From NCBI GenBank assembly GCA_944383275.1, contig CALWOV010000003.1, forward strand, positions 29,827 to 93,826: a DNA stretch of 64,000 nt, in the 5' to 3' direction. This stretch comes from an uncultured Clostridia bacterium (GTDB taxonomy: Bacteria > Bacillota > Clostridia > Christensenellales > UBA1242). This document shows, piece after piece, positions 5,203-56,701 of this stretch. How positions within the stretch are numbered: position 1 is the stretch's first letter; each line of letters begins with the position of its first letter. The notes under the pieces were generated by a model. That model did not search any database. It had not been told where the DNA came from and worked only from the letters and a program-made list of their open reading frames with translations. The translations under genes were made by a program, and so were the position numbers.

Positions 5203-7047
<1,845 letters not shown>

Positions 7048-23304: not shown

Positions 23305-23340
23305 AATTGTTAACTAAATAATTTAAAAATAAAAAATTAA

Positions 23341-23380
23341 AAGAATAAAAGTTGGTTTCAATTTTTATTCTTTTTTATTA
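23341..23380 (+). terminator. Rho-independent terminator after tmcAL
   Basis: AAGAATAAAA / TTTTATTCTT 10-bp stem followed by TTTTATTA. Confidence 0.6.
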
Positions 23381-23680: not shown

Positions 23681-23832
23681 TATATTATCGGAAGTCGAAC
23701 CAAGCACAACTTTAGTTGTATTTGAGTGAGACTGATGTTTATTCAAACTGCGATGGCGGGCAAAGCACGCAAATTCGTTAGAATTTATTAAAATTTTATG
23801 TTAGTAAAATTTTAATATCACATAGTTTATAT
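23681..23832 (+). repeat. Non-coding module A, copy 1 (152 bp)
   Basis: Starts TATAT-TATCGGAAGT, has a long hairpin, the central box ACTGATGTTTATTCAAACTG and an AT hairpin, and ends ATATCACATAGTTTATAT. Matches 56550-56701 with 5 substitutions by hand alignment. Confidence 0.85.
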
Positions 23833-23990
23833 TATCGGAAGTTTTGTCTGAATGCATACGAAGCAAAGCGAGTGTATATTCAAGCAAAACTGATGTTAAT
23901 TCAAACAGTGTTGCCGTTGGAACAACGGGTTTGCGTTTAGCAAATTGGTTTGCGAACATCGTGAGCAAAACAACATCACATAGTTTATAT
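23828..23990 (+). repeat. Non-coding module B, copy 1 (163 bp)
   Basis: Same 5-prime, central and 3-prime boxes as module A but different internal hairpins. Matches 56392-56554 with 3 substitutions by hand alignment. Confidence 0.85.
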
Positions 23991-24075
23991 AATAAGAAGT
24001 TTTGTTTGTAAGCACCTATAAGCATTGGCAAGCAAATCTTGTTTATTTGTAATATAAAATGAAGATTTATATTGT
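23986..24075 (+). repeat. Degenerate short module (C), decayed relative of the 56148-56248 mini-module
   Basis: TATAT-AATAAGAAGTTTTGTTTG ... CAAGCAAATCTTGTTTATTTG ... GATTTATAT; boxes recognisable but eroded. Confidence 0.5.
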
Positions 24076-24244
24076 AGTTTTATTTTGCTTTAAATTAAAT
24101 AAATTTAAAAATTTACATTACATACTTGATACACTATGTAACTTAATTTAAACTATTATTAAAAAAGTATATTAAAATATAATATCAAGTATGTTAAGAA
24201 TAATAATTAGGTTTTGATATTTATAGTTTTTATAATTATATAGG

Positions 24245-27950: not shown

Positions 27951-28014
27951 TTTTATTCTCCTTTTATAAAAATTTTTATATTAAAACACATAATAGAAAT
28001 TTCTATTAAGTTTA

Positions 28015-28965
28015 TTAAACTATAAATTTAACTGTATTTAAACTTTCTTGTTCTTCAACCTTTTTAGGTGTAACAATGTTCTCACGGTCAATATAATAAC
28101 GCAAACCATTAAGTTGAAAATATAATACATTATTTACGATGCATGAATATAAAATGCTTGCTGGAATTGTAAATAAACAACCAACACCACAAGTTAAAAT
28201 TAATACACCAACATTAATAACAAATAAAATTACTATTATTGCAAGTTGAGATAACCAAACTGTTTTGAATTTTTTAAATATAGATTTAAAGTTATCTTTT
28301 AATGCTTTAAAAATGCTTTGATTTTTAACAACAACTGCTGGCGCCCAACAACAGAAAAATGCATATCTAAAACTTAATAATAAAATAAGACCTGTAAGCA
28401 AAATTATTGGCCCAAGATAATTCATTATGCCACCTATTGACAACAACCTGAAAGAAAAAATTAAGCCTGTTATTATTAAAAGGTCTAGTATCATAACAGT
28501 TGCCATTTTGCTTAATGCATATTTCACAGAGCGTCCTAAGTTACTGATTAAGCAACCTGTGAAACTTAATTTTGCGCAACTTCCCATAAAACCATACATA
28601 CATTCTGTTATTGCAATATCTGCAAGTGAAAACAAAAACGTTCCACCAAAAACTATGATTACAAATAAAACAATAACCAAAGGTAATAATGTTGACAAAT
28701 CTGCACTAATTATTTCAAAAAATTGATTAATTAAAACAGAAACATTGGTCATAAGTAAATCTATTCTTACATTGAACACATTATCTACAAAAAATTGTGC
28801 AACACGGTCAAAAAAGCCTGTTTGAACCAAACTTTCTATAAGATTATAGCAACAAGCAAGCGAAATTCCTGCCAAAACTATAACGCAAACTAATTGGTAA
28901 AGCAAAACTTTCCAAACCAAGTTAAATCGATTTACAAACAACTTAAAACTGTTGTCAATACTCAT
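28015..28965 (-). CDS. Polytopic membrane protein, unknown function
   Basis: 316 aa with 6 or more long hydrophobic segments; no catalytic motif recognised. Confidence 0.5.
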   Translation of the reverse strand: MSIDNSFKLFVNRFNLVWKVLLYQLVCVIVLAGISLACCYNLIESLVQTGFFDRVAQFFVDNVFNVRIDLLMTNVSVLINQFFEIISADLSTLLPLVIVLFVIIVFGGTFLFSLADIAITECMYGFMGSCAKLSFTGCLISNLGRSVKYALSKMATVMILDLLIITGLIFSFRLLSIGGIMNYLGPIILLTGLILLLSFRYAFFCCWAPAVVVKNQSIFKALKDNFKSIFKKFKTVWLSQLAIIVILFVINVGVLILTCGVGCLFTIPASILYSCIVNNVLYFQLNGLRYYIDRENIVTPKKVEEQESLNTVKFIV

Positions 28966-28974
28966 AGTTTTCCC

Positions 28975-29793
28975 CTATCGAAGATTATAATATGGTCTTG
29001 TATCATAGCGAGTAATATCGTAATGTTCAAAAATTTTTGTTACTGCAAAAATGCACACATAAGGAATTATAAACAATAGCGAAATTGTGTTAAACAAAAA
29101 TTCTAATTTTAACAAACACCCCAATATTGCAAATACAACGCCAACTAAAATAGGTATTAAAATTCCTAAAAAGTTTTTAAATGATTTTTTGTGAAGTGCT
29201 GTGCTTGCGTTACTTAATGCCACGCTGAATGGTGAGCCCATTATTGCCATATCTACACAAGTAACCGACAAAATTGCAAGAACCCACGCAAATGCAAGAT
29301 ATACAAGTAATGTTATTATTGCACAAGCAACAAGCCCAACGACCCAAGAAATTTCATTTATAACAACAATAAAATGTGCAAGCAACATTAAAAGCACGCC
29401 AACAAGCATAAGCAGAAAATAAGATATAAAAATAAGAGCAGATATTAAAAGCACACTTAAAAAGTTGTTATTAAGTTCAGTGGTTTTTAATGAATAACTA
29501 AACTTGCCTGTTCTAAAATGTGATTCAATCTTACCTAAAATAAGACTTACAAACGCGGTGCAAACAAAAATTCCAACAATGAAAAACAACAATGTTAGCC
29601 AATCTATTGCAAACACGGCATTAAAAAAGTCAGCAAATCCATTAATTTCAAGAGTGTTATAGTTCCATAGAAAATTTATAGATTGAAATGGGTTTAACAA
29701 AACCCCAATATATATTGCAGGAATTAATGCAAAAATTAGCATTGGAATTATGTTTTTAAAATAATATAAAAAAGTTGATTTAACAAATTCCAT
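28975..29793 (-). CDS. Polytopic membrane protein, unknown function
   Basis: 272 aa with 6 or more hydrophobic segments; its short polar C-terminal tail resembles that of the neighbouring gene. Confidence 0.5.
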   Translation of the reverse strand: MEFVKSTFLYYFKNIIPMLIFALIPAIYIGVLLNPFQSINFLWNYNTLEINGFADFFNAVFAIDWLTLLFFIVGIFVCTAFVSLILGKIESHFRTGKFSYSLKTTELNNNFLSVLLISALIFISYFLLMLVGVLLMLLAHFIVVINEISWVVGLVACAIITLLVYLAFAWVLAILSVTCVDMAIMGSPFSVALSNASTALHKKSFKNFLGILIPILVGVVFAILGCLLKLEFLFNTISLLFIIPYVCIFAVTKIFEHYDITRYDTRPYYNLR

Positions 29794-29826
29794 AATTTTT
29801 ACACCACACCTTAAAATATTTGTTTT

Positions 29827-29855
29827 AAATTAAAAGTTTGACGAACACTCGTCAA
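29827..29855 (-). promoter_or_regulatory. Candidate promoter with palindromic operator
   Basis: Perfect palindrome TTGACGA-ACAC-TCGTCAA (29838-29855). On the minus strand TTGACG acts as a -35, followed by a 17-nt spacer and a weak -10 TAATTT, upstream of the 29793 start. Confidence 0.35.
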
Positions 29856-30010
29856 TAATTATAAACAAAAAAATTGCTTAACTTTTCTTATATATTATTA
29901 TATAGAATAAACAAAACAAAATCAAATATTTTAAAGTAAATTTATAAATATTTTATTATTTTTTAACCACTGTTAAATTTATGTTAGCACAAAACTTTAT
30001 TTTTGTCAAC

Positions 30011-30042
30011 ATAAAATAAAAAAGGAACCATATGTGGTTCCC
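30011..30042 (-). terminator. Rho-independent terminator
   Basis: GGAACCACATATGGTTCC hairpin followed on the minus strand by TTTTTTATTTTAT, about 20 bp after the stop at 30063. Confidence 0.7.
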
Positions 30043-30062
30043 ATTTTAATTTAATATGTTAG

Positions 30063-30866
30063 TTATTCAAAGTTTATTTGTGCTTTTTCTATATTATTTA
30101 ATTCATTGTTTTTATCGACAAAAACATCGTTTTGCTGGCAATTTTCTGCCTGCTTGTCAAAATTAACTAAACCATTTTCTGCAATAATACTGTTATTTTC
30201 TTCATTTGAATTTACAATGGTTTCAGTTATATAATTTTGATTTTCATTATTATTAATGCTCATAGAATAATCATTACTGTTTGCATTTTCTAATGAATTA
30301 TCATTTATAACTGTTTCAGTTAAACATTCAGAGTTCGTATTTACCTGACTTTGTTGTGCGTCATTAAATTCTTTAATTTCAGTTGTTAAGTTTTCTGTAT
30401 CTTTTTCAGCATTTTGATTTATATCGGTTATATTATCATTGTTTTCTAAATTTATATTTTCATTAGTAAAGTTGCTGTTTATTTCGTTTTCAACCATAAT
30501 ATTTTCTTCACTATTTTGGTTAATTTCATTGTATAAATTTATTTCAGCATTTTGCTCTGCACTGTTATTAACTATTGTATTTTCTGAATTGATAATGTTT
30601 TCAGTTTCACTTATATTGATATTTTCCATTTCTTCCTCACTTTTAATATTTTGATTTTCATTATTATTTTGCGTGGCATTAGGATATGTTAATATTCCAA
30701 GAACAACAAATATACCTAATACTGCATTAATAATTGACATATAAATTTCTTCATTTATATTAAGCCCTAAAGGTTTACCTATGGCTTGAACAAGCAAAAA
30801 GATGGCACTTGCAAGTGATAGCCAAAAACTGTAACTTTTCTTTTGTTCATTAAAATTAAACTTCAA
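30063..30866 (-). CDS. Membrane-anchored N/E-rich low-complexity protein
   Basis: Two N-terminal hydrophobic helices followed by about 190 aa of Asn/Glu/Ile-rich low-complexity sequence. Confidence 0.45.
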   Translation of the reverse strand: MKFNFNEQKKSYSFWLSLASAIFLLVQAIGKPLGLNINEEIYMSIINAVLGIFVVLGILTYPNATQNNNENQNIKSEEEMENINISETENIINSENTIVNNSAEQNAEINLYNEINQNSEENIMVENEINSNFTNENINLENNDNITDINQNAEKDTENLTTEIKEFNDAQQSQVNTNSECLTETVINDNSLENANSNDYSMSINNNENQNYITETIVNSNEENNSIIAENGLVNFDKQAENCQQNDVFVDKNNELNNIEKAQINFE

Positions 30867-31071
30867 AGCCTACACCTCCTTATTTAATTTAAAATTTACT
30901 TTTTATATTTTTATAAATAACACTTAAAAATTAAAATTTATTAAAACTTCTTTATTTTTATTTAACAAAATTAATATATTGATGATTTTAATCTGCTATT
31001 AAACTTTATAAAAGTAATAATAAAAATTTTTAAACATAAATAAAACAGATAAAAAATTACTAAAAGCAATT

Positions 31072-31884
31072 TTATTTTCGTGTATTGTTCCAAGTTAAAA
31101 CATTGTTATACCAAGGTGTTCCGATTGTATCAATTAATTCTTGTTTACCACTGCTTAAAATAGACGCTGCTTCTGACTTGCTTTTTTGTGCTAAATAATT
31201 AATTAAAGTTACTGCCTTATGTTGTTGAACTTGGCTGTTTATGTTTGATAGTTCGTTGTTGATACTTTCATATGTATAAGCATTTGAATTGCTTTGTTCC
31301 ATTTCTTTTGTCAAACTTGCTATTTCATCGTTTAATTTTTTAGCATAAGCAATATCAAAATTTTCAAGAGCATTTTCTTTTTGTGTTTCAAGCAATTCTT
31401 TTTGGAATTGTAAAGAACTCATTTTTATATTATTTTCTTCTTGCAAATCTTGTAATTCAGATTGATAAGTTGAATTAATTTTGTTTAAAGTGTTATCAAA
31501 AATACTTGAATTTCTCCACCCTTTTTCAATAGAACCATAGTTTAAACTGTTTGTTGCATTAAGTTTTTCTGCATCTAAATCTTCGACATCGTCTTGATAG
31601 TCTTTTTGTGCTGTAGCAATTTTTTCATCTAATTTAACTTGTTTTTCGCCATATTTAGCTTCAATAGATTCAATATTGCTTGTTTTATATTGATTTAAAT
31701 TTTGTTCGGCTTGTGCTTTTATGTTGCTTGCTTGAGTGTCTAACTCGTTCTTTTTTGTTAACCATTCGTTAATTCTTGACTCATACATTTTGTCTATATT
31801 ATTAAATTCTTTTTGAATTTCAGAATTTATTGTAAGTTTAGGTAAAGAAGATGCTGAAACTGTTTTTTCAAATTTTTGTGCCAT
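31072..31884 (-). CDS. Coiled-coil structural protein (phage-like), unknown role
   Basis: Last gene of the cluster. The start at 31884 (MAQKFEK) is preferred because GGAGGTG lies 7 nt upstream; the longer ORF to 31980 overlaps the previous gene. Confidence 0.4.
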   Translation of the reverse strand: MAQKFEKTVSASSLPKLTINSEIQKEFNNIDKMYESRINEWLTKKNELDTQASNIKAQAEQNLNQYKTSNIESIEAKYGEKQVKLDEKIATAQKDYQDDVEDLDAEKLNATNSLNYGSIEKGWRNSSIFDNTLNKINSTYQSELQDLQEENNIKMSSLQFQKELLETQKENALENFDIAYAKKLNDEIASLTKEMEQSNSNAYTYESINNELSNINSQVQQHKAVTLINYLAQKSKSEAASILSSGKQELIDTIGTPWYNNVLTWNNTRK

Positions 31885-31957
31885 ATAAGCACCTCCATTT
31901 ATATAATAATTTTTATCATTTATTTGATTAATTAAAAATTTAACATAGTTTTGAGAA

Positions 31958-33529
31958 CTATATTTCGTCTTTAAAGGCATAGTTTAAAACCCCGTGTAAT
32001 CTTCTAAAATATGCATTTCTGCTTTCAAAAAAATATTGACCTTCTGTTACATATCTTTCCTTTGACACTTCTTTTGTATCTAAATTTAATTCTTTAGTGT
32101 AAATTCTTCCTACTCTTGAATAGTAAAATCTAACAATGTTATCAAACAGTGTTGCTGTTACATTTTTACCTGTTCCGATATAAAGTGCAGACTCGTAGGC
32201 AGGAGTTAAAAAGGAACTATTTGTTGGAGTGGTTATTGTGTTGTTATAACAAGGAAGAATATAGAATTTATCATTTTCCCCGTAAAACCCCGGAATACAA
32301 AAATAACCATATTTATTATCTTTAATATCAAAGACACTAAATGCACCATTAACTTCAGATAAACCTGTTGTTAAATACCCCCTGCTGGTTATCCTAGATG
32401 AGTTATCTGTTCCCATTGGAATGAACGACACTTTATCTTTGGTATCGTTTTTTATATGCGCAAACACAATACCCGCTATGTAATAACGATTTATATCATT
32501 GTCTGAGGTCTGTCCTATAGTTAAAGTTGTTCCATTCATTAAATAATCGTTGTAATTAAAGATTTCCACCCCAGTCCACCAATCCACTTTATAATCAGGG
32601 TCTATTGTTGATGTTTTAAACCAAAAACTTCCTAATCTTAAAAAATTGGTATTTGTTATAACCATTATTACAGGTCTTGAAAAATACTGTCCATTTGTAT
32701 CTTTTTCATAACTAGGAAAAATTTGAAAATGCTTTATTACAGTATTAGTTGGAATTAAAAAGAAACCTGATGCAGCTTTTAAATCTGTTTCATTAAGTTC
32801 TGTTTCTGTTTTGTTATTTTCGTCAACAAATCTATTTTCAGCATAACGAGGTCTATATTTCATAAGATAAACCCCATATCTATCTGATGGTATTTCTGTT
32901 AAATGTGTTGGCGATTTATATGCTGGGCAAACAAGTTCACCAAAGTTGTTTTCAAAGTTAAATGCTTCGTGTCCTATTAACTCGTAATGTAAATTTTCAA
33001 GCGAAAAACGAACATTTGTGTTATTTGAATCTTTTGTATAATGATAAGTTTTTAACTCTATTATTGATGGTGTAGAATTAGCAAAGAAATTATATTCAAA
33101 ACTATAAACATCAATGTTATCAGAAAAACTAAACGAATTTTCGTGAATTAATTTACTATCAAAATAAAACTCTACCTTCCCATCACCACTTTCACCAGAC
33201 ACATAACTTTTTATGTCATAAACCACTTTTAATCTTGCAACTGTTTCTTTTTTGACTTGTAGTTTTGCAACAAAATAAGTAGCATCGCTTGTAAGTCGTG
33301 CCTCAAAAAAATAGTTTGTAAACACTTGAACTATATCGTTATCTATTTTATTAAATATTTCAAAGTTTCGTTTATCACGCTTATCTAAAAAAATATTATT
33401 TTCTTGTAAAGAATTTATTTCTTTTTTTACTTTAATTATTTCATTATTATTAACTTCATTTACCTCTTCCATTTCATCTATAAGTTTTAACGCTTTATTT
33501 CCATCGGTATTTTTAAAATTATTTTGCAT
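31958..33529 (-). CDS. Phage-like structural protein (candidate tail, fibre or receptor-binding)
   Basis: 523 aa, beta-rich, aromatic/Asn-rich composition; position distal to the adaptor. Confidence 0.4.
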   Translation of the reverse strand: MQNNFKNTDGNKALKLIDEMEEVNEVNNNEIIKVKKEINSLQENNIFLDKRDKRNFEIFNKIDNDIVQVFTNYFFEARLTSDATYFVAKLQVKKETVARLKVVYDIKSYVSGESGDGKVEFYFDSKLIHENSFSFSDNIDVYSFEYNFFANSTPSIIELKTYHYTKDSNNTNVRFSLENLHYELIGHEAFNFENNFGELVCPAYKSPTHLTEIPSDRYGVYLMKYRPRYAENRFVDENNKTETELNETDLKAASGFFLIPTNTVIKHFQIFPSYEKDTNGQYFSRPVIMVITNTNFLRLGSFWFKTSTIDPDYKVDWWTGVEIFNYNDYLMNGTTLTIGQTSDNDINRYYIAGIVFAHIKNDTKDKVSFIPMGTDNSSRITSRGYLTTGLSEVNGAFSVFDIKDNKYGYFCIPGFYGENDKFYILPCYNNTITTPTNSSFLTPAYESALYIGTGKNVTATLFDNIVRFYYSRVGRIYTKELNLDTKEVSKERYVTEGQYFFESRNAYFRRLHGVLNYAFKDEI

Positions 33530-33532
33530 ATT

Positions 33533-35032
33533 TTAAACCAAATTTATTTCTAATTGAGGATTGGAAATATTGCAAGTATCATCTTCACTTATAAATGAAA
33601 TTGAAAAAAGTTTAGCCCTTAATGAAAGAGGTATTTTAATTGGTTTATTACTTCCCATTACCGAAAATTTATATTCTTTTTCTTCTTCTGTTTTAATAAT
33701 TACTGTTATATCACCTTTACTTAACAAGCATAAATTTCTTAAAACTTTGGTTTTATCTGGATAGCCCATATCTGTTTTTGGAGATGTCCATACCTTTTTA
33801 CTTACAGTGTCAAAAATTTTACCAGAATGTGTAAGTTCGCCTAATTTATTTTGATACTGCGTTTTAAAACACGCAACTAATTTACTTGTTTTGTCTATTT
33901 GAATAGGCCTTAGGGCGCAAATATCTACGCCACGCATAATTAAATATTCCCCAGAATTTATATCAAACTCTACTAATGCATTATTCTGATAGCCCTGTGT
34001 GGCTTCACAACCTATTTGCTGACCATCACCAAAATCTAGTTTACAAGCAAGGTAATATTTCCCATCTAAAAAACCACCAATTGCATTGCTGTTGTCAAAC
34101 TTTGTTATCATATCAACAAAGCCTGCATCAATTTTGCTAAAATTTATCCCATCAAATGAATATAGACCATCTCGACATAACATTAAAATTATATCTCCAC
34201 ATAAAATTGCAGATTTTTCATATATTCTTGAATTTGAAAGTGCTAAATGTTTTATTGTAAAATCGGTTTGTTCCCCATAACCTGACACTCTTGAAATACC
34301 AAATTCTCTTATAATGTAAAGATAATTTTTATAACTTATAACATTATTAAGCCCACCACGCTCGTCATTAATTTCTATGTAACCACCATCAAATTCGCTT
34401 ACATTCCAATTACACGGGTTTGTTTCATCAGAAAACCAAAGTTCATTTTTCATATTTCCAACTGTTGCAAAAAGCCTGTTTGCGTGAGTTGCCAAAGTGT
34501 TGATTTTGGGTGTGTCTGGATATGACACAGGGAAATTTTGCCCGTCCCACGCAGTTAGTTGGTCATTTTCGTTATTACTACAAAATACTATTCTGTTTCT
34601 GCCATCAATATACATATTTATGGCAACCGGTTCACTGTTAAAAGTTAGATTAAGCAATTCATAAAAATTGGTATCAGTTGTATACATTGGTGCCCAATAT
34701 AATTTCTTTTCACTAGTGTAAAAAACTAAAACAGGTTGAAATTCTTCATATGTTTTATTATAGTTATTAAAAAACCAAAAATTTTTTATTTCAGAAACCG
34801 TTGACGGAACTGACATTGTTTTTGTTACATCACCTACTGTTATTGTTAAGTCTTTAAAACCAAGACCATTTGTTAATGCACCAGAACTGAAATCATAGTT
34901 ATAAGTTTGCCTTGCTATGTTTAAAGGTAAAATATTTTGTTCCGTTTTAGTATCAACACCATTTAAAAAGTTTGAAAGTTTAACTTGCAAAACAGTATGT
35001 TCGTTTATAGGTAAAATATCACGATAAAACAC
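33533..35032 (-). CDS. Phage-like structural protein (candidate tail, nozzle or baseplate)
   Basis: The ORF is open to 35116, but AAGGAGGTG lies 8 nt before the GTG at 35032, which overlaps the upstream stop (TAGTG coupling); about 499 aa. Confidence 0.45.
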   Translation of the reverse strand: MFYRDILPINEHTVLQVKLSNFLNGVDTKTEQNILPLNIARQTYNYDFSSGALTNGLGFKDLTITVGDVTKTMSVPSTVSEIKNFWFFNNYNKTYEEFQPVLVFYTSEKKLYWAPMYTTDTNFYELLNLTFNSEPVAINMYIDGRNRIVFCSNNENDQLTAWDGQNFPVSYPDTPKINTLATHANRLFATVGNMKNELWFSDETNPCNWNVSEFDGGYIEINDERGGLNNVISYKNYLYIIREFGISRVSGYGEQTDFTIKHLALSNSRIYEKSAILCGDIILMLCRDGLYSFDGINFSKIDAGFVDMITKFDNSNAIGGFLDGKYYLACKLDFGDGQQIGCEATQGYQNNALVEFDINSGEYLIMRGVDICALRPIQIDKTSKLVACFKTQYQNKLGELTHSGKIFDTVSKKVWTSPKTDMGYPDKTKVLRNLCLLSKGDITVIIKTEEEKEYKFSVMGSNKPIKIPLSLRAKLFSISFISEDDTCNISNPQLEINLV

Positions 35033-35598
35033 TAGAACCACCTCCTTGGTGGCATTTTTACTCCACTTTTTTTGCGTTGTGCCACAAGCATACTTTGAGC
35101 AAACTTTGTGTCCCAAGCACTTGCATCAGAAAACAAACCTTTATAAAGGAAATATCTTGCAACAACGCCGTTAGCAAATGCATAGTCATCTATTTTATAA
35201 GACACATCTATTGTGTCTGTTAACTCTTCAATAAGCGCAGGAGCATAAGTGTATGTGATGATATAATTACCATTTGAACATTCAATAAAAGTTGGAAAAG
35301 TGTTATATTTTTGTTTTATTCCATTATTGTTTTTCACAGAAATTAGTTCTATTAAATTTTTTGATAAATCGGAAAAATTAAATTTATTATTAGAAATTGT
35401 TATATTTTCAGTTGTTTTCAATGGAATATACATAAAGGCTATTAAATGATTTACATCATTAATACAACTTATTATTTGATTTATTTGTGCTTGCTGGTCT
35501 TCTGTTGAAGTTGAAGTTCCACCAAGTTCTGTTATTTGCAAAAGGTTGTTTAAGTTTAAATGCTTGCACACTAGTTTTACTATATCTTTAACAATCAT
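35032..35598 (-). CDS. Candidate head-tail adaptor / connector protein
   Basis: 188 aa; lies after the capsid genes; N-terminus (IVKDIVKLVCKHLNL) resembles gp6-type connector starts; start at 35598 preceded by AAGGAGA. Confidence 0.4.
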   Translation of the reverse strand: MIVKDIVKLVCKHLNLNNLLQITELGGTSTSTEDQQAQINQIISCINDVNHLIAFMYIPLKTTENITISNNKFNFSDLSKNLIELISVKNNNGIKQKYNTFPTFIECSNGNYIITYTYAPALIEELTDTIDVSYKIDDYAFANGVVARYFLYKGLFSDASAWDTKFAQSMLVAQRKKSGVKMPPRRWF

Positions 35599-35609
35599 TT
35601 CTTCTCCTT

Positions 35610-35987
35610 TTAAACCCATCTATCTTTATAGGCATCATTAAAATTTACATCATTATTTTTCTTGTTTGCATAGTCATACATTTCTTTAAGTTTCCACCTT
35701 GCTTCATCATTTTGTACTCGTTTAATCTCTTGTTCTAGTTTTTCATTATGAATTTCCATTTCTTTTATTAATTTATCAGCATTTTCTCTTCTGGTTTTTC
35801 TAACATACGGAACCAGCCTTGCGTCAATTTTATTAAATGGAACAACCAAGCAAAAAGTTTGTTTTTGCCCTGAATTATGCACTTCATATCTTTGTTTATT
35901 TGTGTTATATACAATAAAATAGTTATTATCTATTGCTTTTAGTCTTGATAAAATATCAAAAACATCTGTTGTTATATTTACTAACAT
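35610..35987 (-). CDS. Hypothetical phage-like protein
   Basis: 125-aa ORF between the capsid and adaptor genes. Confidence 0.4.
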   Translation of the reverse strand: MLVNITTDVFDILSRLKAIDNNYFIVYNTNKQRYEVHNSGQKQTFCLVVPFNKIDARLVPYVRKTRRENADKLIKEMEIHNEKLEQEIKRVQNDEARWKLKEMYDYANKKNNDVNFNDAYKDRWV

Positions 35988-36002
35988 ATTACTTCCCTTT
36001 TA

Positions 36003-36031
36003 CAAATCAAGGGTGAGCAAAAGCCCACCCC
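36003..36031 (-). terminator. Terminator/attenuator-like hairpin after the capsid genes
   Basis: On the minus strand, GGGTGGGC-TTTT-GCTCACCC followed by TTGATTTGT, directly after the stop at 36040. Confidence 0.45.
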
Positions 36032-36039
36032 TGATAAAA

Positions 36040-37206
36040 TTAAGATGCAGTTATTGAAAGTTTGCCTTGTCCACCTGTTTTATCACAAATAAGTTCAGCA
36101 TATTTTACCAATGTTGCAGTGTGAATTGGGTATCCTTCTTTTTGTTTCAAAATTCTGCCGTTATCAGAACTTAACCATTCCCAATCACAAAGTTGATGAA
36201 TTTTAAAATCTTTACTGTTTAAAAAGTAAACTTCACCATCTTTAGCGAAACGGTCGGCAACAAAAGGAATACCATTGAATGATATGGTTTTATATCCACC
36301 CTCAAGATTTAAAATGTCAACATTTAATTTATTTGCTGAAAGTTTTTCTTGGTATAATCTTCTTGCATCAAGTGCACCCATTATGAAGTCTATTTCTGAA
36401 CCTTTTTGTTCAGACAATGTGTCTAGAACTTCCATAAAAGATGCTTCTGTAAAATTCGCTTTTGTAACAGATGCACTGTAAGGTTTTAAAAATGGATAAG
36501 TAGTAACCGAGTTACCATAAAGTGTTGCACCTTCAAAAATCGACTTTAAGCCTGTAATTTCTTTATCTTTACTTCCCTGCACATATAAAGATACAGTTTT
36601 TTGAGTGTTTGCCATATCTTCTGTTGCAGCATCACTTAAAGTTATTGTTTTTGTGCCGAAATCACAATTAAGAATTCTTGTTGTATGTGAATAAACGCCA
36701 TCTACATAAATATCAACCATCATTCCTATCATTAAATTTTTAATACTGTCAACTGTGAATGTATAAACATCTTTTGCTGAAGAATTTCCAGACGCTAAAA
36801 GCCCTGTTCCATCTCCGTAAAGCATTCTACTCATATTAAATTTGCTCGCTTCTATCATTCCTTCCATTTCGGCTGTAAGCAAATTTACAAAAGCACCAGC
36901 CTCTGACGAAGATGCACGCAAAGCCTTGTCTGAAAGTTCTATTGTTCCATAAAGGTTTTTTAGCGTAGAGGTTAGCAACAAGTAATTATTAAAGCCACTT
37001 AAAGGCAAAGCACCCACTTCTGTTCCTGCACCAATTCCACCATTAACACCATATGGAACTAATTTTTTTATCGCTTTTCCAACAACATCTTGGCTTGTTT
37101 TTTCAAGTTTTGACAAAAATGGGTGTGTTTTTGTGTTAAGTTGATTTGCTACAATACCAAGATACATAGTTTTAAGCGCTTCATTTGCTGTTTGTAATGT
37201 AACCAT
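36040..37206 (-). CDS. Major capsid protein paralog 2 (presumed HK97-fold)
   Basis: 388 aa, immediately after the scaffold and paralog 1. Shares N- and C-terminal blocks with paralog 1 (LKNLYGTIE, AGAFVNLLTAEMEG, SRMLYGDG, HQLCDWEW, LKQKEGY, TLVKYAEL). Confidence 0.65.
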   Translation of the reverse strand: MVTLQTANEALKTMYLGIVANQLNTKTHPFLSKLEKTSQDVVGKAIKKLVPYGVNGGIGAGTEVGALPLSGFNNYLLLTSTLKNLYGTIELSDKALRASSSEAGAFVNLLTAEMEGMIEASKFNMSRMLYGDGTGLLASGNSSAKDVYTFTVDSIKNLMIGMMVDIYVDGVYSHTTRILNCDFGTKTITLSDAATEDMANTQKTVSLYVQGSKDKEITGLKSIFEGATLYGNSVTTYPFLKPYSASVTKANFTEASFMEVLDTLSEQKGSEIDFIMGALDARRLYQEKLSANKLNVDILNLEGGYKTISFNGIPFVADRFAKDGEVYFLNSKDFKIHQLCDWEWLSSDNGRILKQKEGYPIHTATLVKYAELICDKTGGQGKLSITAS

Positions 37207-37224
37207 AAATTCCCCCTTTAAATT

Positions 37225-38403
37225 TTAAGATAAATTAGTAAGTTTAGCTTGTCCTGCTGGTTTTGAACACATAAGTTCGGCATATTTTACCAAGGTTGCA
37301 ATAAAACTTGCATAGCCTTCTTTTTGTTTTAAAACAGAACCATCTTCATTGCAAAGCCATTCCCAATCGCAAAGTTGATGCATTGCAAAATCATTTGTGT
37401 TTAATAGATACATTGTTCCAGATGGAATAAATTTATCACTTATCATAGGAATTCCATTGAAACTTAAAGTTCTATAGCCACCTTGTAAATTCAATGGTTC
37501 TAAGTTTGCTCGTTTTTCCATTAAAAGTGATGCGAATTTGCGTTTTAATGCACTTGTTGTTGCAATAAAGTTTATTTCATTGCCCGTGCGTTCAAGCACT
37601 GTATCTATTGCAGTTTGAATGTATATATCGTTAAATGTATCACTTGTGGTTTTAGATTTTGTATAAGCGTTTATCCAAGGATAAGATGTTCTATTTACAC
37701 CGTAAATTGAACCTGTAGTTTCGAATATTTTTTCGATACCTGTTAATTCTTGGTCTTTACTGTTTTGCATATAAACTTTGTAACTAGATGCCGATGTTGC
37801 AAATTCGGTTGTAACAACAGTTGATAAAGTTATTTTTTTACTTGCTCTATCAATGCTTGCAATTCGAACTCCACAAAAACCAGAAACTTTAGAAGTGCCA
37901 TTATAAAAATCGATAACCATACCTTCTAAAAGTTTGCTAACATCGTCAACTGTAATTTCATTTTTTGATACATTTGCAGAAGATACAGAGCAAAGACAAC
38001 CACTGCCATCACCATATAACATTCTGCTTAAATTAAACTTACTTGCTTCAAGCAAACCTTCCATTTCGGCTGTAAGCAAGTTTACAAAAGCACCAGCATC
38101 ATCTATTGATGCACGCATTGCTTTATCTGAAATCTCTATTGTTCCATAAAGATTTTTTAGTGTTGATGTAAACAACATATATTTATTTTCTGCACTTTTA
38201 GGTAGAATACCACCTTCATCACCAGCGCCAACACCACCATTAACACCATATGGCGCAAGTTTTTGAATTTCTCTGCCATAAACATCAGAAGTTGTTTGTT
38301 TTATCTGGTTATAAAGTGCATTTGTGTTTGTGTTTAACTGATTACTTACAACGCCAAGATATACATCTTTTAAAGCGTTTTCAGCAGTTTGCATTGTTAC
38401 CAT
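37225..38403 (-). CDS. Major capsid protein paralog 1 (presumed HK97-fold)
   Basis: 392 aa, directly downstream of the scaffold gene; size and position typical of an MCP; conserved blocks shared with paralog 2. Confidence 0.65.
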   Translation of the reverse strand: MVTMQTAENALKDVYLGVVSNQLNTNTNALYNQIKQTTSDVYGREIQKLAPYGVNGGVGAGDEGGILPKSAENKYMLFTSTLKNLYGTIEISDKAMRASIDDAGAFVNLLTAEMEGLLEASKFNLSRMLYGDGSGCLCSVSSANVSKNEITVDDVSKLLEGMVIDFYNGTSKVSGFCGVRIASIDRASKKITLSTVVTTEFATSASSYKVYMQNSKDQELTGIEKIFETTGSIYGVNRTSYPWINAYTKSKTTSDTFNDIYIQTAIDTVLERTGNEINFIATTSALKRKFASLLMEKRANLEPLNLQGGYRTLSFNGIPMISDKFIPSGTMYLLNTNDFAMHQLCDWEWLCNEDGSVLKQKEGYASFIATLVKYAELMCSKPAGQAKLTNLS

Positions 38404-38414
38404 ATATAAAACTC

Positions 38415-39137
38415 CTATTTACTAAAGATTTTTTTTGCCAGTTCTTTTGCTTCTTCAAGTGTAGTTGCTGATTTGATTTGATTTTCAAAATTAACTCCAT
38501 TATTTGAATTTATAAAAGTTGGCACATTAGGTTTTGTGCTGTTAACTTGTTTTAAATAATCTTTTATAACAGCATCACGAACTTTGTTGTTTTTTAACAC
38601 TTGATTAAAATTAGTTTCACTTTCCAAATAATTCTGGTTATTAACAAGTTGCTGTTCTAGAAATTTTAACCAAGCATTATGCAAGGGGTTTTGACTTTCT
38701 GCAATAACCTTATCTTGCAAAATTAGATTAGAGAGTTCTTTTGCATATTCTTTTGCGCGTGGATTTTCTTGCAAGAAATTTTCTACATAACCTTTCCATT
38801 CCTTTTTATCAAATAAATTATTTGTAGATGCCCCTTGCATTTCTTCTTGTTTTTGTAAACTAGACAAAAGTTGACTTTTGCGAGTGAACTCTTTTTCTAA
38901 ATTTTCATAAGCATTTTTTAAAGATTCAACATCTTTAAATTTTCCTAATGGAGAACCATCGGGTAATGGTTGCTCTCCTGTTTTTTCTTTTATATTGCTA
39001 TTATTTAGTGCATTTTCTATGTTTTTTAAAGAATTTTTATCTTGTTCTATGATATTTGGTTTTAAATTTATATTTTTAATATTTAAGTTATTTTCATTTT
39101 GTAAACTTAAATTTGGTGTATTTTCAACAATTTCCAT
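38415..39137 (-). CDS. Candidate scaffolding protein
   Basis: 240 aa, acidic, helical and low-complexity; lies between portal and capsid. Confidence 0.5.
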   Translation of the reverse strand: MEIVENTPNLSLQNENNLNIKNINLKPNIIEQDKNSLKNIENALNNSNIKEKTGEQPLPDGSPLGKFKDVESLKNAYENLEKEFTRKSQLLSSLQKQEEMQGASTNNLFDKKEWKGYVENFLQENPRAKEYAKELSNLILQDKVIAESQNPLHNAWLKFLEQQLVNNQNYLESETNFNQVLKNNKVRDAVIKDYLKQVNSTKPNVPTFINSNNGVNFENQIKSATTLEEAKELAKKIFSK

Positions 39138-39148
39138 AAAAAATTCTC

Positions 39149-41038
39149 CTAATTTTCAAAAACTTTATTTGCTTCTTGTTCTAGTTTTTTAAACTGTTTA
39201 TGTTCCCTTATATGTTTCAAAAGCATATCTTTTAATTCGGCATTTTCTTTACACGCTTTTTCGAAATCTCCACTTAACATAAAATTTATGTGTTCATTAA
39301 TATGTAAATCGTGATTATGAATTTCTAAAACTTCACATTCCTTTTTATTTAAAAACTCAATATTTTCGCGCTTTGCTTTCTGAATTTGTAAAGTGTTTTG
39401 GTCAAGAGCATCTTCCCACATTCCAAACCCAAGCATTTCCAATGTCTTGCTTCTTAATGAATTAGACATCTTTCCGTTCTCATCTAAAAGCAATCCGGAA
39501 TTTAAAAGTTCAAAAACCATATTTCTTTTTTGAGCCACAGTTTGACCAAGTTCAGATTCTGTTTCAAAAGCAATTTCATCTGACGATATATTTCCCCTGT
39601 CCCAATAAAAGAACTCGCTTGCACCGTTTTGCCCAACCACTCGCCCCATTCGATTAGTTGTTGCAAATTGTTTATATAATCTTAATATTTGTTGGGCAAC
39701 CATTTTTAAAGCAAAACAAATATATTCTCCACTTGCAGAAATTCTAGCCTCTTCTTGTTCAATTAAAATTTGCAATGCAACTCCACTCATACTACTTATA
39801 TTTGTTGAACCACCAAGCAAATCACTAACCCCACTTACAGTTATAAATTCACTTTCAAGTCTTTGCTCTTCTTCGGTAAAGTTTGCAGGAACAGAATCCG
39901 TTGCTAATATTTTAGGAGTATTTGAACCTTGTCTGTAAACCAAAACTTTTCCAGGACTTAACCCCTCTTCCTCCAACTCATCAATATCTATAGAGCCATC
40001 TTCTACGGTTAAAATTCCCATAGACAGCCGGTTAATAAATTCGTGTTTCCTATTTTTTATTGCGTTATAAGCGCGTTGAACAGGTATCATTCTTTCTATA
40101 ACACTTCCCCCCCAAAACAAAGATGGTTGTTCAATAGAAATTTGTCGCACAAAAGGAAAACCTCGTTCCCCATATTTTAAATTTTTATAAGGTAATTCAC
40201 CATCGAACACAAGTTTATCACCAGCAACAATAACCAATCTTCCATTTGGGAATTTTTTACTAGGTTCTTCATATCTTTCTATAACCATAGCAGAATCTTT
40301 TTGTTTAGTTTTTTGAAATTTTGAAATATATAATTGATTATCAACAAAGCCATCTGCCTGGACGCTTGACAAAGTGTAGATATCTAAATCTTCGCCTTCA
40401 AGTTTTATACCCCAAACTTTTTCTATTGTATCTACCGAAAAGGGTTTTGCGTGTATTATACTTTTACAATAATTTATATCTGCACTTCCGTTACTGTCTG
40501 GATATATTTCAAATGGAGAACAAACCATAACATCTACATCACCTTCATAGATTCGTTCACCATATGGCGTTATTCCAACAACAGAACCCGAACTGTTATT
40601 CCAAACTATTTTATAAAATGCCGTTCCACAAATTTCACTCCATCTAGTTGCTTGAGAAATTAATTTACTCATATCAAGTTTATTAGATATTGATTGCAAA
40701 ATATTTTTACTAACTTTTGCATTACTTAAATCATCTTCATCAGAACTTGCTGGAAGAACTGTCATGGTTGGTCTTACTTTTGCAAGTTTTGCAATTCTAC
40801 TTTCTAATATTGGTGCTATATGATTGTAAACTTGTTTTTCTTCCCAAAAATATTTTTTATCAATTTCGTTTTGTATTTGACTTTGTGTTACTTCACAATA
40901 CTGATTTCCTAAAACAAAATTTAAGTTTAATTGCCATTGTGTTTCAAAAGGTTTTCGTGCTTCATGCCTTTTTTTAAAATCATTCCAAACATCTTCAACT
41001 AACTCTTTTTCATAATCTTTTTTATTTGTGTTTTTCAT
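39149..41038 (-). CDS. Phage portal protein
   Basis: 629 aa; N-terminal pattern RKPFETQWQLNLNFVLGNQY is typical of portals; lies after the terminase. Confidence 0.8.
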   Translation of the reverse strand: MKNTNKKDYEKELVEDVWNDFKKRHEARKPFETQWQLNLNFVLGNQYCEVTQSQIQNEIDKKYFWEEKQVYNHIAPILESRIAKLAKVRPTMTVLPASSDEDDLSNAKVSKNILQSISNKLDMSKLISQATRWSEICGTAFYKIVWNNSSGSVVGITPYGERIYEGDVDVMVCSPFEIYPDSNGSADINYCKSIIHAKPFSVDTIEKVWGIKLEGEDLDIYTLSSVQADGFVDNQLYISKFQKTKQKDSAMVIERYEEPSKKFPNGRLVIVAGDKLVFDGELPYKNLKYGERGFPFVRQISIEQPSLFWGGSVIERMIPVQRAYNAIKNRKHEFINRLSMGILTVEDGSIDIDELEEEGLSPGKVLVYRQGSNTPKILATDSVPANFTEEEQRLESEFITVSGVSDLLGGSTNISSMSGVALQILIEQEEARISASGEYICFALKMVAQQILRLYKQFATTNRMGRVVGQNGASEFFYWDRGNISSDEIAFETESELGQTVAQKRNMVFELLNSGLLLDENGKMSNSLRSKTLEMLGFGMWEDALDQNTLQIQKAKRENIEFLNKKECEVLEIHNHDLHINEHINFMLSGDFEKACKENAELKDMLLKHIREHKQFKKLEQEANKVFEN

Positions 41039-41176
41039 ATTTATCTCCTTAAATTTTTTAATATTAAAACAGCAAAATATGCTGATTGTTTTTAATAAAT
41101 TGATTAAATTTTATTATTTTTAATGCTTTTTATTGTTTTATTATAAATTTTTATCTTTAATTATGATATTTGATAT

Positions 41177-41467
41177 TTACTTTAAAAGCTTTAAAAGTCG
41201 TTGTTTTTCGTTTTCCAATTCTTCATCTGTATAATTTTTATAATCTTTATTTTTATCCCAGAACAGTTCAAGCAATGCTCGTGCTGCTGGTATATCTGGT
41301 GGTATATGTTTTTTTGTAACTTTTCTTTTAGTTAATGTAAGATTATCCTCATCTGTTTTTGCATATTCTTCAACAATTTCATCAACCGAATATCCCATTG
41401 CTTTTTTTAATAATGCTTTAGTTAATTCTTTATTTTCTTTATCATCTTTCAACTTATCATTACTCAT
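41177..41467 (-). CDS. Small DNA-packaging accessory protein (possible small terminase-like)
   Basis: 96 aa, charged, with an HTH-like segment (KAMGYSVDEIVEEY) and an IPPDIPAARALLEL motif; overlaps the TerL stop; unusually downstream of TerL. Confidence 0.35.
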   Translation of the reverse strand: MSNDKLKDDKENKELTKALLKKAMGYSVDEIVEEYAKTDEDNLTLTKRKVTKKHIPPDIPAARALLELFWDKNKDYKNYTDEELENEKQRLLKLLK

Positions 41468-42938
41468 AGTCTTCTCCGTTGAACAACTTTTCTATTTTGT
41501 TTTTTAATCTTAGTCTATATCTATTTTGTTTGGAAATTAATTTATCTTTATGTTTTTGTATGCTTGTTTTTATGGTTGCAATTTTAGGAACTTCAGGTCT
41601 TGACATAACATAATATCTTAATTCATCTAAAGCGTGGTCATCTTTTTTTATTGGAGCATCATCGTTACCCCACCAATATGCTTTAATTTCTCTTATTAAG
41701 TTTACACAATTTTTAAAAATGAAAAGTTTTGTTACGCCATCGCTAGAACGCAATAAACTTTTCACTCTTGATATTCCTGAAAACAAATCTTTATTAACAT
41801 TGGTATTCACATTAATTCCATATTCATAAAACAACTCTGCCACACTTTTACTGCTTGCTAAAGTTTTTTGGTTTGCGGCAGAATCTATTAACGCCGAGAT
41901 TTTTCCATTAAAAGTTTTCCATTTAAGTTTTTTACAAATTTCTTTTATACAAATTGAATGTTCTTCAACCGTTTTGTTTGAAGCATAATGTTCGGCAATT
42001 ACATAAATATTTCCATCATAATCAACAGCATACCAATGCGCACTTAATGGGTTATGAAGGCCTGGGTCGATTGAAATATTATCATACCAATCAATAGGAA
42101 CTTCGAATGGTTCTATAACGTGAATTGCTGGGTCAAACTCGTTATAAACCATTCCACCATGCCCAACAAATTTTCCATACCTTCTACTATCCAACTCATC
42201 TTCAGACAATAACCTTGACATCTCTTCAATTTCATTTTTATCAAGATAAGGGTTATCTGCCCATTCCATATTTATCGTCCAAATTTGTGGGTCTTGTTTT
42301 TTGTTTAAATATATTTCTTCATAAACCCAAGTTAAGCCTTTAAGTGGTGTCATCGTTCCAAATATTTCACCTTTTCTATCTAGAACACGCATTTTACATT
42401 CAAGATAAATATCATAGGGTGGTTCTTCGTCAAACCAAACAAAATCTAAACTTGTTCCTTGAAATTTTTCTCTACCTTGGTCGCAACTTTTAAATGCTAT
42501 TTTACTTAAACTTCCAAAAACATTTCTTATTAATATATAGTCAATTACACCATTTTCTGGGTCATCTTTTCTTCCTGACAACATAATTATTTCGACTATC
42601 CAATCGGGATTTAAAAAGGATAAAATTTTCTGTTGAGCAACATCTCGTTGAACCTGTGTGCTAAGCGATACTACCCAGCAACTTATTGGTTTGTTTTTTC
42701 TAAACGGGTGATTTCCTCTTGCAAGCCAAACGGTTTCTGCTGCACCGCACTGACTTTTACCACTTCGGTTTCCACCAAATACCCACCTATTTTTTGATAA
42801 GCATTTATGAAATTCGATTTGCTTTAAATGAATTTTATCACCAGTGTTATAGTTTTTCATTCGGTCATTATTGATTCTGCGTTGCTGTTCATTTTCAATT
42901 TTTTTTATTTCTAAAACTATGTTGTTTAAGTCATACAT
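41460..42938 (-). CDS. terL: Phage terminase large subunit
   Basis: Walker A GGNRSGKS, Walker B LDFVWFDEEP, C-terminal RNaseH-like nuclease region (SIDPG ... DDHALDELRY); RBS AAGGAGAA. Confidence 0.9.
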   Translation of the reverse strand: MYDLNNIVLEIKKIENEQQRRINNDRMKNYNTGDKIHLKQIEFHKCLSKNRWVFGGNRSGKSQCGAAETVWLARGNHPFRKNKPISCWVVSLSTQVQRDVAQQKILSFLNPDWIVEIIMLSGRKDDPENGVIDYILIRNVFGSLSKIAFKSCDQGREKFQGTSLDFVWFDEEPPYDIYLECKMRVLDRKGEIFGTMTPLKGLTWVYEEIYLNKKQDPQIWTINMEWADNPYLDKNEIEEMSRLLSEDELDSRRYGKFVGHGGMVYNEFDPAIHVIEPFEVPIDWYDNISIDPGLHNPLSAHWYAVDYDGNIYVIAEHYASNKTVEEHSICIKEICKKLKWKTFNGKISALIDSAANQKTLASSKSVAELFYEYGINVNTNVNKDLFSGISRVKSLLRSSDGVTKLFIFKNCVNLIREIKAYWWGNDDAPIKKDDHALDELRYYVMSRPEVPKIATIKTSIQKHKDKLISKQNRYRLRLKNKIEKLFNGEDYE

Positions 42939-43020
42939 TTTATTCTCCTTAAAGAATTATCAACAAAAAACTTATTTAATTTATATTTTTTCTTCAAATT
43001 AGGTTTAATTTTGCAATAAA

Positions 43021-43056
43021 AAACAATAATTGCACATGAAAGCACAATTATTGTTT
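43021..43056. promoter_or_regulatory. 12-bp-stem inverted repeat between terL and the divergent gene
   Basis: AAACAATAATTG-N12-CAATTATTGTTT. On the minus strand it is followed by TTTATTGC (terminator-like), about 85-120 nt upstream of the terL start. Confidence 0.4.
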
Positions 43057-44460: not shown

Positions 44461-44624
44461 TTTACTCCCCCTTTTTTGTAAAAAAATAAATCACATTATA
44501 AAAAATCGCACAAAGGCATTACATTTCTGCATATTACTATATCAATTCGACATTTGTCAATACTCCTGCGCTATATTTTTGTAAAATATTTTACAAAATT
44601 AATTAATTTTTTGTTCAATTTTTT

Positions 44625-56147: not shown

Positions 56148-56248
56148 TATATAATCGGAAGTTTTGTCTGCAAGTGCATATTGGCATTCGCAAGCAAAAC
56201 TGATATTTATTTACACTGTATTAAAATTTTACATCACAAAGTCTATAT
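56148..56248 (+). repeat. Mini-module D (101 bp) of the same family
   Basis: TATAT-AATCGGAAGTTTTGTCTG, hairpin, CAAGCAAAACTGATATTTATTTACACTG ... ACATCACAAAGTCTATAT. Has the 5-prime, central and 3-prime boxes but lacks the second hairpin region. Confidence 0.7.
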
Positions 56249-56396
56249 TACAAAAAGTTTATATAAAATTTGGGTTTACTTTAACTTTACATAAATAGTA
56301 ACTAAATCAAATTTATGCCGATAAACATCAGTTTTAAAGTAATTTTTCAATTCGCTAAAAATTTTCATTTTAAAATTGTTACGGCGCAATTTATAT
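56249..56396 (+). repeat. Possible highly degenerate module
   Basis: Begins TACAAAAAGT (compare TAATCAAAAGT at 62577) and ends TTTATAT; contains AACATCAGTTTT, the reverse complement of the central box; otherwise unrecognisable. Confidence 0.25.
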
Positions 56397-56554
56397 TATC
56401 GGAAGTTTTGTCTGAATGCATACGAAGCAAAGCGAGTGTATATTCAAGCAAAACTGATGTTAATTCAAACAGTGTTGCCGTTGGAACAACGGGTTTGCGT
56501 TTAGCAAATTGGTTTGTGAACATCGTGAGCGAAACAACATCTCATAGTTTATAT
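56392..56554 (+). repeat. Non-coding module B, copy 2 (163 bp)
   Basis: Differs from 23828-23990 at 3 positions by hand alignment. Confidence 0.85.
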
Positions 56555-56701
56555 TATCGGAAGTCGAACCAAGCACAACTTTAGTTGTATTTGAGTGAGA
56601 CTGATGTTAATTCAAACTGTGATGACGGGCAAAGCACGCAAATTCGTTAGAATTTATTAAAATTTTATGTTTGTAAAATTTTAACATCACATAGTTTATA
56701 T
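56550..56701 (+). repeat. Non-coding module A, copy 2 (152 bp)
   Basis: Differs from 23681-23832 at 5 positions by hand alignment; its last base is the first base of the murF-like stop-codon triplet. Confidence 0.85.

Follow-up and report, generated by a model that had tools for sequence, protein, structure and literature searches.

A family of structured and probably mobile intergenic repeats in low-GC uncultured gut Clostridia

Known small repeats and the units of the window

BOX, REP/BIME, ERIC and MITEs (miniature inverted-repeat transposable elements) are small interspersed repeats of other bacteria, and the element described here behaves in a similar manner (PMC3049150). It is a unit of about 150 nucleotides (nt) that is repeated head to tail at three intergenic loci in a 64,000-nt stretch of DNA, called the window below, from an uncultured Clostridia bacterium (contig CALWOV010000003.1, positions 29,827 to 93,826 of the forward strand). 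The window, with about 30% G+C and the standard genetic code, contains housekeeping genes of the Firmicutes type and has 87% of its coding sequence on the minus strand. In our view the units probably form a family of small, non-coding, non-autonomous and strand-specifically structured mobile repeats of low-GC uncultured gut Clostridia. The element is not a leader, an element of an untranslated region (UTR) or an ordinary small RNA (sRNA) gene.

The BOX elements of Streptococcus pneumoniae (boxA-boxB(n)-boxC) are regarded as mobile repeats of a non-autonomous kind, and their ends resemble the inverted repeats of the insertion sequence (IS) ISSpn2 (PMC3049150). Like the present units, they are small, intergenic, non-coding and modular, with a number of modules that varies between strains, extensive predicted folding, about a hundred dispersed copies and no gene of their own (PMC3049150). 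In contrast to BOX, the present units have no inverted termini, the repeated module is a whole two-domain unit, and the parts that vary are covarying helices of a four-way junction. BOX also comes from an unrelated host clade and has an unrelated sequence, and the likeness, taken from the published description, is in organisation only.

Terminal inverted repeats and target-site duplications define MITEs, which are tied to IS with similar ends (PMC3049150). The Correia/NEMIS, RUP and Nezha elements resemble our units in being short, AT-rich, highly base-paired, intergenic, non-autonomous and strain-variable. A preliminary description of this DNA had likened the units to BOX elements and MITEs. 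They are indeed small, modular, non-coding and multicopy, and their presence varies between strains, but the terminal inverted repeats that define a MITE are missing. A unit starts with (T)ATATTATCGGAAGT and ends with CACATAGTTTATA(T), and when the 3' end is reverse-complemented (ATATAAACTATGTG), ATAT is all that it has in common with the start. Because it has no terminal inverted repeats, the element fails the definition of a MITE. The ends of the units are direct copies (TATAT...TATAT), insertion is oriented and head to tail, and no partner IS was seen in the 8-kb blocks around pattern matches that were covered by our search of neighbouring genes.

REP/BIME elements, and REPINs with their RAYT transposases, are likewise intergenic, structured, clustered and present in many copies, and an enzyme from one distant locus is thought to recognise them in the form of folded single strands. 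REPs are simple palindromes of 20-40 nt, usually in inverted pairs, whereas our units are 150 nt long, have two domains and stand in direct tandem, and no RAYT was identified for them in the window or among the nearby open reading frames (ORFs). Arrays of integron attC sites also run head to tail, with a site that is conserved in structure, a fold of one strand, and units that are added at a short core beside an existing unit. We considered and rejected an integron attC array for the present units because the arrays, scattered over many unrelated loci, have no recurring integrase, no attI platform and no cassette ORFs within the units. Their core also differs from RYYYAAC / GTTRRRY, and the joint is on the 5' side of the rod domain described below and not in a GTTRRRY box.

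The whole window gave no match in Rfam 15 at the gathering thresholds, which agrees with the earlier statement that the units belong to no described RNA family. In E-value mode the matches were at chance level only, the best being mir-19 (24 bits, threshold 50) and HrrF (22 bits, threshold 77). No tRNA or tmRNA genes were found in the window. A blastn search of plasmids and phages gave no match to the element, and an origin from either was rejected after two viral-contig scans returned just two chance matches within coding sequence. The box sequences were not found in the collection of papers that was searched, and they are missing from the first 200 of the 408 supplementary files of a survey of structured RNAs from the gut (PMC8040213).

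Each full unit has TATATTATCGGAAGT at its start, ACTGATGTTWATTCAAACWG in its middle and CATCACATAGTTTATAT at its end. The central box has 5 matches in the window (0.12 expected), the 3' box 5 (0.25 expected) and the 5' box 11 (4.8 expected), and all 5' box matches with at most two mismatches lie within the three loci. All eight units of the window are on the plus strand (Table 1). Four of them are intact (A1, B1, B2 and A2), one is short (D2) and three are decayed (C1, E3 and F3). The three boxes had been named in the preliminary description, and all were found at the positions given there, far above chance. Its count of seven units at three loci was borne out with regard to the loci and to those seven units, but it had overlooked an eighth, F3. 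It had also described units that abut head to tail, the 3' box of one running into the 5' box of the next, and neighbouring units do share TATAT.

Locus 1 reads A1-B1-C1 and had been placed between the terminators of two convergent genes, both of which we located. On the left is the AT-rich terminator hairpin of a plus-strand nucleotidyltransferase gene (~23340-23376, read by eye), and on the right is the terminator of a minus-strand U32/TrhP gene (24269-24255). Locus 2, between murF and ddl, contains D2 followed by B2-A2. At locus 3, E3 is just upstream of yhbY, which is on the opposite strand, and F3 is further right, with a 3' box that abuts the Obg stop and has the counterpart CACATAGTTTATA in a relative (L116). 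No conserved reading frame was found, as had been noted earlier: any single frame is open in at most 10 of the 90 full units. We rejected a protein-coding remnant, since no frame is conserved across these units.

Predicted structure and the strand that carries it

Forty-three diverse units, folded singly, gave one common architecture with two domains. The first domain is a rod of about 60 nt that begins with a helix, P1, in which nt 4-10 of the 5' box pair with nt 56-62 of the central box. Past P1 there is an invariant symmetric internal loop, G11-A12 opposite G54-A55, forming a tandem G.A/A.G (CG-GA-AGU / ACU-GA-UG), and beyond this loop come AGU/ACU and P2, which is a variable hairpin. AAACU...AGUUU and GUGAUG/CAUCAC close the second domain, a four-way junction that contains two or three variable hairpins, including one with a C(GNNA)G loop. 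Invariant bases cluster in P1, in the G.A motif and at the unit joint. Unit A1 folds into the rod and the four-way junction, and the short unit D2 has an intact rod and a 3' domain that is cut down to its closing stem. A K-turn was considered for the G.A motif and rejected, as the pairing register (i+j=66) runs through unbroken and lacks a 3-nt bulge.

With a covariance model made from 19 units, 98 units were found at 80-164 bits, and antisense matches reached only ~30 bits. On the large alignment, which was fitted to the model so that these figures are inflated, 90.1% of the cells are standard pairs compared with 36-42% when the 3' partners are slid, both sides have changed in 44 of 52 pairs, and none of 500 shuffles reached the observed values. 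Compensatory changes in P2 are already visible in an alignment made with MAFFT only, without a model. The closing stem changes in concert (GUGAUG/CAUCAC, GGAAGUG/ACUUCC, CGGUG/CACCG and AUCUAUGU/ACAUAGAU), and pair 5-61 of P1 is U-A in 36, A-U in 7, G-A in 1 and G-U in 1 of 45 distinct sequences. According to this modelling, the parts between the boxes appear to be covarying helices of a conserved two-domain structure.

With RNA parameters, 78 of 86 units are predicted to fold more stably on the given strand than on the complement, and with DNA parameters 82 of 86. Hairpin loops of the G..A type account for 182 of 345 loops on the given strand and for 4 of 340 on the complement, and the tandem G.A would become U.C on the other strand. 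Because stability, G..A loops and tandem G.A all favour the given strand, the structure is assigned to that strand alone, and both RNA and single-stranded DNA are compatible with the data.

The variable hairpin of the rod falls into 12 sequence clusters and the junction domain into another 12. Since 10 of the 12 hairpin clusters combine with at least two junction clusters, the unit types of what had been called a modular family are, as judged from sequence, recombinants of a limited set of modules that are joined at the conserved boxes. A second subfamily has a diverged rod (5' ..CUCAAGGAAGU or ..AUACAAGAAGU, centre ACUGACGCCGAAUC) and an unchanged junction domain. The units of this subfamily are mostly in tandem with units of the main family.

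Gain of units, gene context and spread among relatives

We compared the window with contigs from other samples that encode exactly its proteins. At locus 1, where all of the contigs carry an identical nucleotidyltransferase gene product, L124 and L125 have unit C only, L122 has B+C, L123 has B+C with a 36-nt deletion in the flank, and the window has A+B+C, A1 being missing from L122-L125. The joint of B is exact: the empty site AAC-TATAT-AATAAG becomes AAC-TATAT-[TATCGG...CATAGTT-TATAT]-AATAAG, and A later joined on the 5' side of B in the same manner. C1 appears to be the oldest unit at this locus, since none of the five same-species contigs lacks it. Locus 3 of L107 and L147 has an additional intact A-type unit that is joined exactly to the 3' end of F3 through the common core ATATT(A). 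This unit is missing from the window and from L108, L112, L113, L116 and L145. At locus 2, D2 is kept in L117-L120, and all of the contigs that reach murF or ddl (including L144-L147 and L117-L120) break inside B2 or A2. Six further contigs stop a few hundred bases past the nucleotidyltransferase gene. Look-ups of DnaK, TsaD and MurG revealed no new solitary insertions in other strains within window positions 1-17 kb and 43-64 kb.

The gained units are flanked on both sides by a 5-6-nt sequence (TATAT or ATATTA) that is itself part of the unit's ends. This identity could be a target duplication, the result of insertion beside a self-recreated target, or a crossover in a short core. The two flanking pentamers of solitary copies often differ, as in GATAT...TATAA, which argues against simple duplication. 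Nearly all copies have (T/A/G/C)ATAT as their 5' flank, which would be compatible with insertion of a left end 3' of a fixed tetra- or pentanucleotide as in PATEs, the ORF-less derivatives of IS200/IS605 elements. However, positions 4-5 of this pentamer may belong to the element itself, because they pair and covary with nt 61-62 of the unit. In L123 (3782-4125), compared with L122 and L124, the 36-nt flank deletion is immediately 5' of unit B (TTGGTTA-ATATTATCGG). It may be an adjacent deletion linked to insertion or recombination.

A scan of relatives with the pattern ATCGGAAGT-N(25-55)-ACTGATRTTWWTT, using one genome per species, returned at least 106 loci. With this search, a check to which the preliminary description had pointed, the family extends to at least 97 real loci in at least 38 assemblies; the other 9 loci listed are chance matches in unrelated phyla. 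The carrier assemblies are low in GC and are labelled uncultured Clostridia, Christensenella, Christensenellales or Eubacteriales, with a few labelled Lachnospiraceae. Among the matches listed, the host animals are human, chicken, mouse, yak and roe deer, and many of the carrier genomes have many loci. At least 25 matches are at true contig ends. With the rod-domain profile, nhmmer counted 149 units in 116 arrays at the loci listed (89 single, 21 double and 6 triple), a census that includes one chance match, in L025. The census was made with nhmmer; cmsearch loses every second tandem unit, neighbouring units overlapping by a few bases. Identical copies occur at separate loci within one genome (L028, L049 and L055; L007 twice), and many copies are decayed or truncated. 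No autonomous copy, in which an ORF would split the rod domain from the 3' box, was found among the listed loci. Orphan 3' boxes were rejected as candidates for such copies, being regex noise or members of the second subfamily, and the one in L104 is a truncated unit.

The units are nearly always intergenic, and the genes that flank the arrays are unrelated housekeeping genes; only housekeeping families recur when the ORFs are clustered. Array and upstream gene share a strand in 49 cases and differ in 51; for the downstream gene these numbers are 52 and 39, and arrays are found in all four gene-orientation classes without bias. This random orientation is in keeping with the earlier view that the element is neither a leader nor a simple UTR. 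A riboswitch or leader was rejected on account of the mixed orientation of downstream genes and the unrelated flanking genes. Other cis-acting RNA elements of the neighbouring genes, such as 3' UTR stabilisers or terminators, could be suspected from the position of locus 3 just upstream of yhbY (on the opposite strand) and of locus 2 between murF and ddl. Long hairpins could also alter the stability of any transcript containing them, an effect known for BOX, ERIC and Correia elements (PMC3049150). However, locus 1 is between two terminators of convergent genes, and strains without A and B keep identical flanking genes. A cis-acting role as the primary function is thereby largely refuted, and we consider it extremely improbable that the units are such elements, although incidental effects on transcripts are possible.

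The main rival to mobile repeats is a host-serving multicopy RNA. The units would then be host genes for a structured small RNA, for example a protein-binding or sponge RNA with its G.A helix bound by an L7Ae/YbxF-type or other protein, and copy number would vary by duplication. Strong covariation of all helices, the confinement of invariant bases to one motif, the strand-specific stability with GNNA/GAA loops, and an architecture kept across at least 38 genomes are all as expected for such an RNA. The surroundings of the units are not: a -35-like (TTGACA-like) hexamer at a fixed distance upstream shows no positional peak, and terminators are not enriched downstream on the element strand (5 of 84 arrays compared with 12 of 84 in the control direction). 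A stand-alone sRNA gene was rejected on these two grounds. Given the random orientation, read-through would produce the sense strand half the time only. Intact units are present or missing between strains of one species, and the many decayed or truncated copies also speak against host genes. On this evidence we think a host-serving RNA unlikely.

No recurring family of transposases, recombinases, reverse transcriptases or nucleases was found among 337 flanking and 629 nearby ORFs, which were clustered without family annotation, and the window has no such genes outside its prophage-like stretch. This bears on two further explanations. IS200/IS605 elements insert into the single-stranded template of the lagging strand at the replication fork (PMC5027513, PMC6006769). 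The units could be PATE-like derivatives of these elements, moved as single-stranded DNA circles by a Y1 HUH transposase (TnpA or RAYT) and inserted 3' of xATAT. IS200/IS605 ends and PATEs share with our units the lack of inverted repeats, secondary structure near both ends, dependence on one strand and oriented insertion beside a 4-5-nt sequence (PMC5027513), in our case the conserved (T/A)ATAT. The 3' end of a unit recreates (T/A)ATAT, which would explain the head-to-tail arrays. The structure is as favourable with DNA as with RNA parameters, and DNA forms stable C(GAA)G loops and tandem G.A. However, lagging-strand targeting should bias orientation, and no such bias was seen, the locally dominant gene strand, which is only a proxy for the direction of replication, being that of the array in 32 cases and opposite in 34. 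In the window the folded strand is opposite the strand that holds 87% of the coding sequence and runs counter to the GC skew, and reasoning from these two would place it on the leading-strand template. There is no TnpA/TnpB-like gene in the window and none recurs among the nearby ORFs. The architecture of the units goes far beyond two simple hairpins; we know of no requirement of IS200/IS605 transposases, or of Y1 enzymes, for a four-way junction. A PATE-like origin therefore seems to us quite unlikely.

The second explanation is that the units are non-autonomous retroelements, a bacterial SINE-like RNA that a reverse transcriptase from another locus would copy and that would be inserted at AT-rich sites. 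A strand-specific fold conserved by covariation, the lack of inverted repeats, oriented insertion and the absence of a replication-strand bias would all suit such an element. Against this, the units join exactly at a fixed core, lack 3' tails and variable duplications, and showed no internal promoter. No reverse transcriptase appeared in the ORF clustering described above, and Rfam detected no motifs of group II introns or retrons. To our knowledge, SINE-like RNA has no bacterial precedent outside group II introns and retrons, and we regard retroelements as a very unlikely explanation.

The coordinates of the units in the window, of the second subfamily and of an adjoining repeat are given in Table 1. 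This different repeat, AAGGAACGAGAGAAAGTG...(hairpin)...CACTTGAAATCGTGACGC, directly adjoins units at three loci and may represent a further family of structured repeats in the same genomes. On the minus strand of L007, just 3' of the unit at 4093-4243, there is a palindrome of the 5'-box core (AAAAACTTCCGTTATCGGAAATTTT). About 40 nt past this palindrome, the reverse complement of the 5' box occurs inside a perfect TTGACA-17-TATAAT promoter-like site.

Table 1. Positions of the repeat units, their parts and adjoining features
Feature	Position	Strand	Sequence	Evidence and remarks
Unit A1, intact, 151 nt	23681..23831	+		nhmmer full-unit profile 77.5 bits; 97% identical to A2 over 154 nt
Unit B1, intact, 162 nt	23828..23989	+		covariance model R1 125.9 bits
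B1, 5' box	23828-23842
B1, P2 hairpin	~23843-23888
B1, central box	23889-23908
B1, four-way-junction domain	~23903-23986
B1, 3' box	23973-23990
Unit C1, decayed and truncated	23986..24080	+	5' box TATATAATAAGAAGT	5' box with 2 mismatches; weak profile match, E ~0.5-1.2
Unit D2, short form, 100 nt	56148..56247	+		R1 58.1 bits, inner 63 model positions deleted
Possible inverted central-box fragment, uncertain	56321..56335	-	ACTGATGTTTATCGG on - strand	weak nhmmer match, E = 0.22
Unit B2, intact	56392..56553	+		R1 115.8 bits; 97% identical to B1 over 175 nt
Unit A2, intact	56550..56700	+		nhmmer 78.8 bits; end one base before murF stop codon
Unit E3, decayed	62573..62724	+	5' box TAGATAATCAAAAGT, 3' box TATCACAGTATTTACA	R1 29.6 bits (rod domain); nhmmer E = 1e-5
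Unit F3, strongly decayed, 150 nt	62803..62952	+	5' box TATATTACAAGAAGT, 3' box CGACACATAATTGATA	5' box with 3 mismatches
Second-subfamily unit, L034	~2990-3140
Second-subfamily unit, L087	984-1131
Second-subfamily unit, L010	310-444
Second-subfamily unit, L014	4301-4446
Second-subfamily unit, L092	~750-895
Adjoining different repeat, L048	~6400-6480
Adjoining different repeat, L097	~180-260
Adjoining different repeat, L089	~6430-6590

The prophage-like region occupies window positions 28000-47730, between RNase J and gyrA, and many of its ORFs have no Pfam match. Its genes include a holin-like ORF (30063-30866), a P22-like portal (39149-41038), a large terminase (41460-42938) and an SSB (47001-47726), and two adjacent paralogous genes (36040-37206 and 37225-38403) have a DNA identity of 72-75%. 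Between rsfS and yhbY there is a 270-aa ORF (61294-62106, plus strand) with no Pfam/NCBIfam match that is kept in all of the same-species contigs. An rRNA operon lies a few kb past the right end of the window; L144, L145 and L146, which break in the murF array at one end, have their other end inside a 16S rRNA gene (first 160 nt).

Proposed spread of the units and its meaning

Several points weigh against our preferred reading of the units as mobile repeats. No mobilising enzyme was found in the window or among the 629 nearby ORFs, and the units have neither terminal inverted repeats nor a clear target-site duplication. All three gains adjoin an older unit, with 5-6 nt of identity to the joint, and gene conversion or unequal recombination between arrays could yield them without true transposition; the ~89 solitary copies in unrelated intergenic contexts still require de novo insertion. 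Wobble pairs speak for the given strand to a modest degree only (G.U 333 compared with A.C 167, or 242 compared with 167 when the invariant pair is left out), the covariation figures carry the inflation mentioned above, and a host function of the RNA is possible. In addition, all of the data are from metagenome assemblies, which are poor at repeats, and there are N-gaps in or beside repeats in L107 (2382-2575) and L144 (~6140). The gap region of L107 also holds a duplicated 40-nt stretch. Such gaps and duplications are assembly artefacts typical of the element.

If the units are mobile repeats, their spread would depend on a folded single-stranded intermediate, either RNA or single-stranded DNA and possibly a unit-length circle. 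An enzyme encoded elsewhere in the genome and acting in trans would read the invariant P1/G.A helix beside the joint, a recognition site suggested by the concentration of invariant bases in P1, the G.A motif and the joint itself. New units would join at the short ATAT(T) core, and because this core is found at both ends of every unit, insertions would land beside older units, giving head-to-tail arrays. The variable modules would be shuffled through recombination at the conserved boxes. The excised circle of a solitary unit would show the junction ...CATAGTTTATA-TTATCGG.... The role of the element would be selfish rather than host-serving.

A more speculative possibility, which we consider rather unlikely, is that the element is a new kind of mobile cassette, a folded single strand of RNA or DNA (perhaps a unit-length circle) that integrates at its own ATAT(T) joint. 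The invariant tandem-G.A helix would be read by an enzyme or RNA activity that is new to transposition, and the target might be chosen in part by pairing with nt 59-63.

The carriers of this family are abundant uncultured bacteria of the human and animal gut with small AT-rich genomes. At tens of copies per genome the repeat breaks assemblies, and most of the same-species contigs that were examined end inside it. Since it varies between strains, it could be used as a strain marker. The ends and the mode of insertion match no standard class, covariation extends across dozens of species, and there is no linked mobilising gene; the mover of the element could be a new partner enzyme or a known enzyme in a new use. 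The family is of interest for the study of bacterial repeats, mobile DNA and structured RNAs, as the combination of a conserved structure, oriented insertion beside its own copies and no linked gene fits no established mechanism. The RNA or DNA nature of the folded form would place the element among the structured non-coding RNAs or the single-strand transposons.
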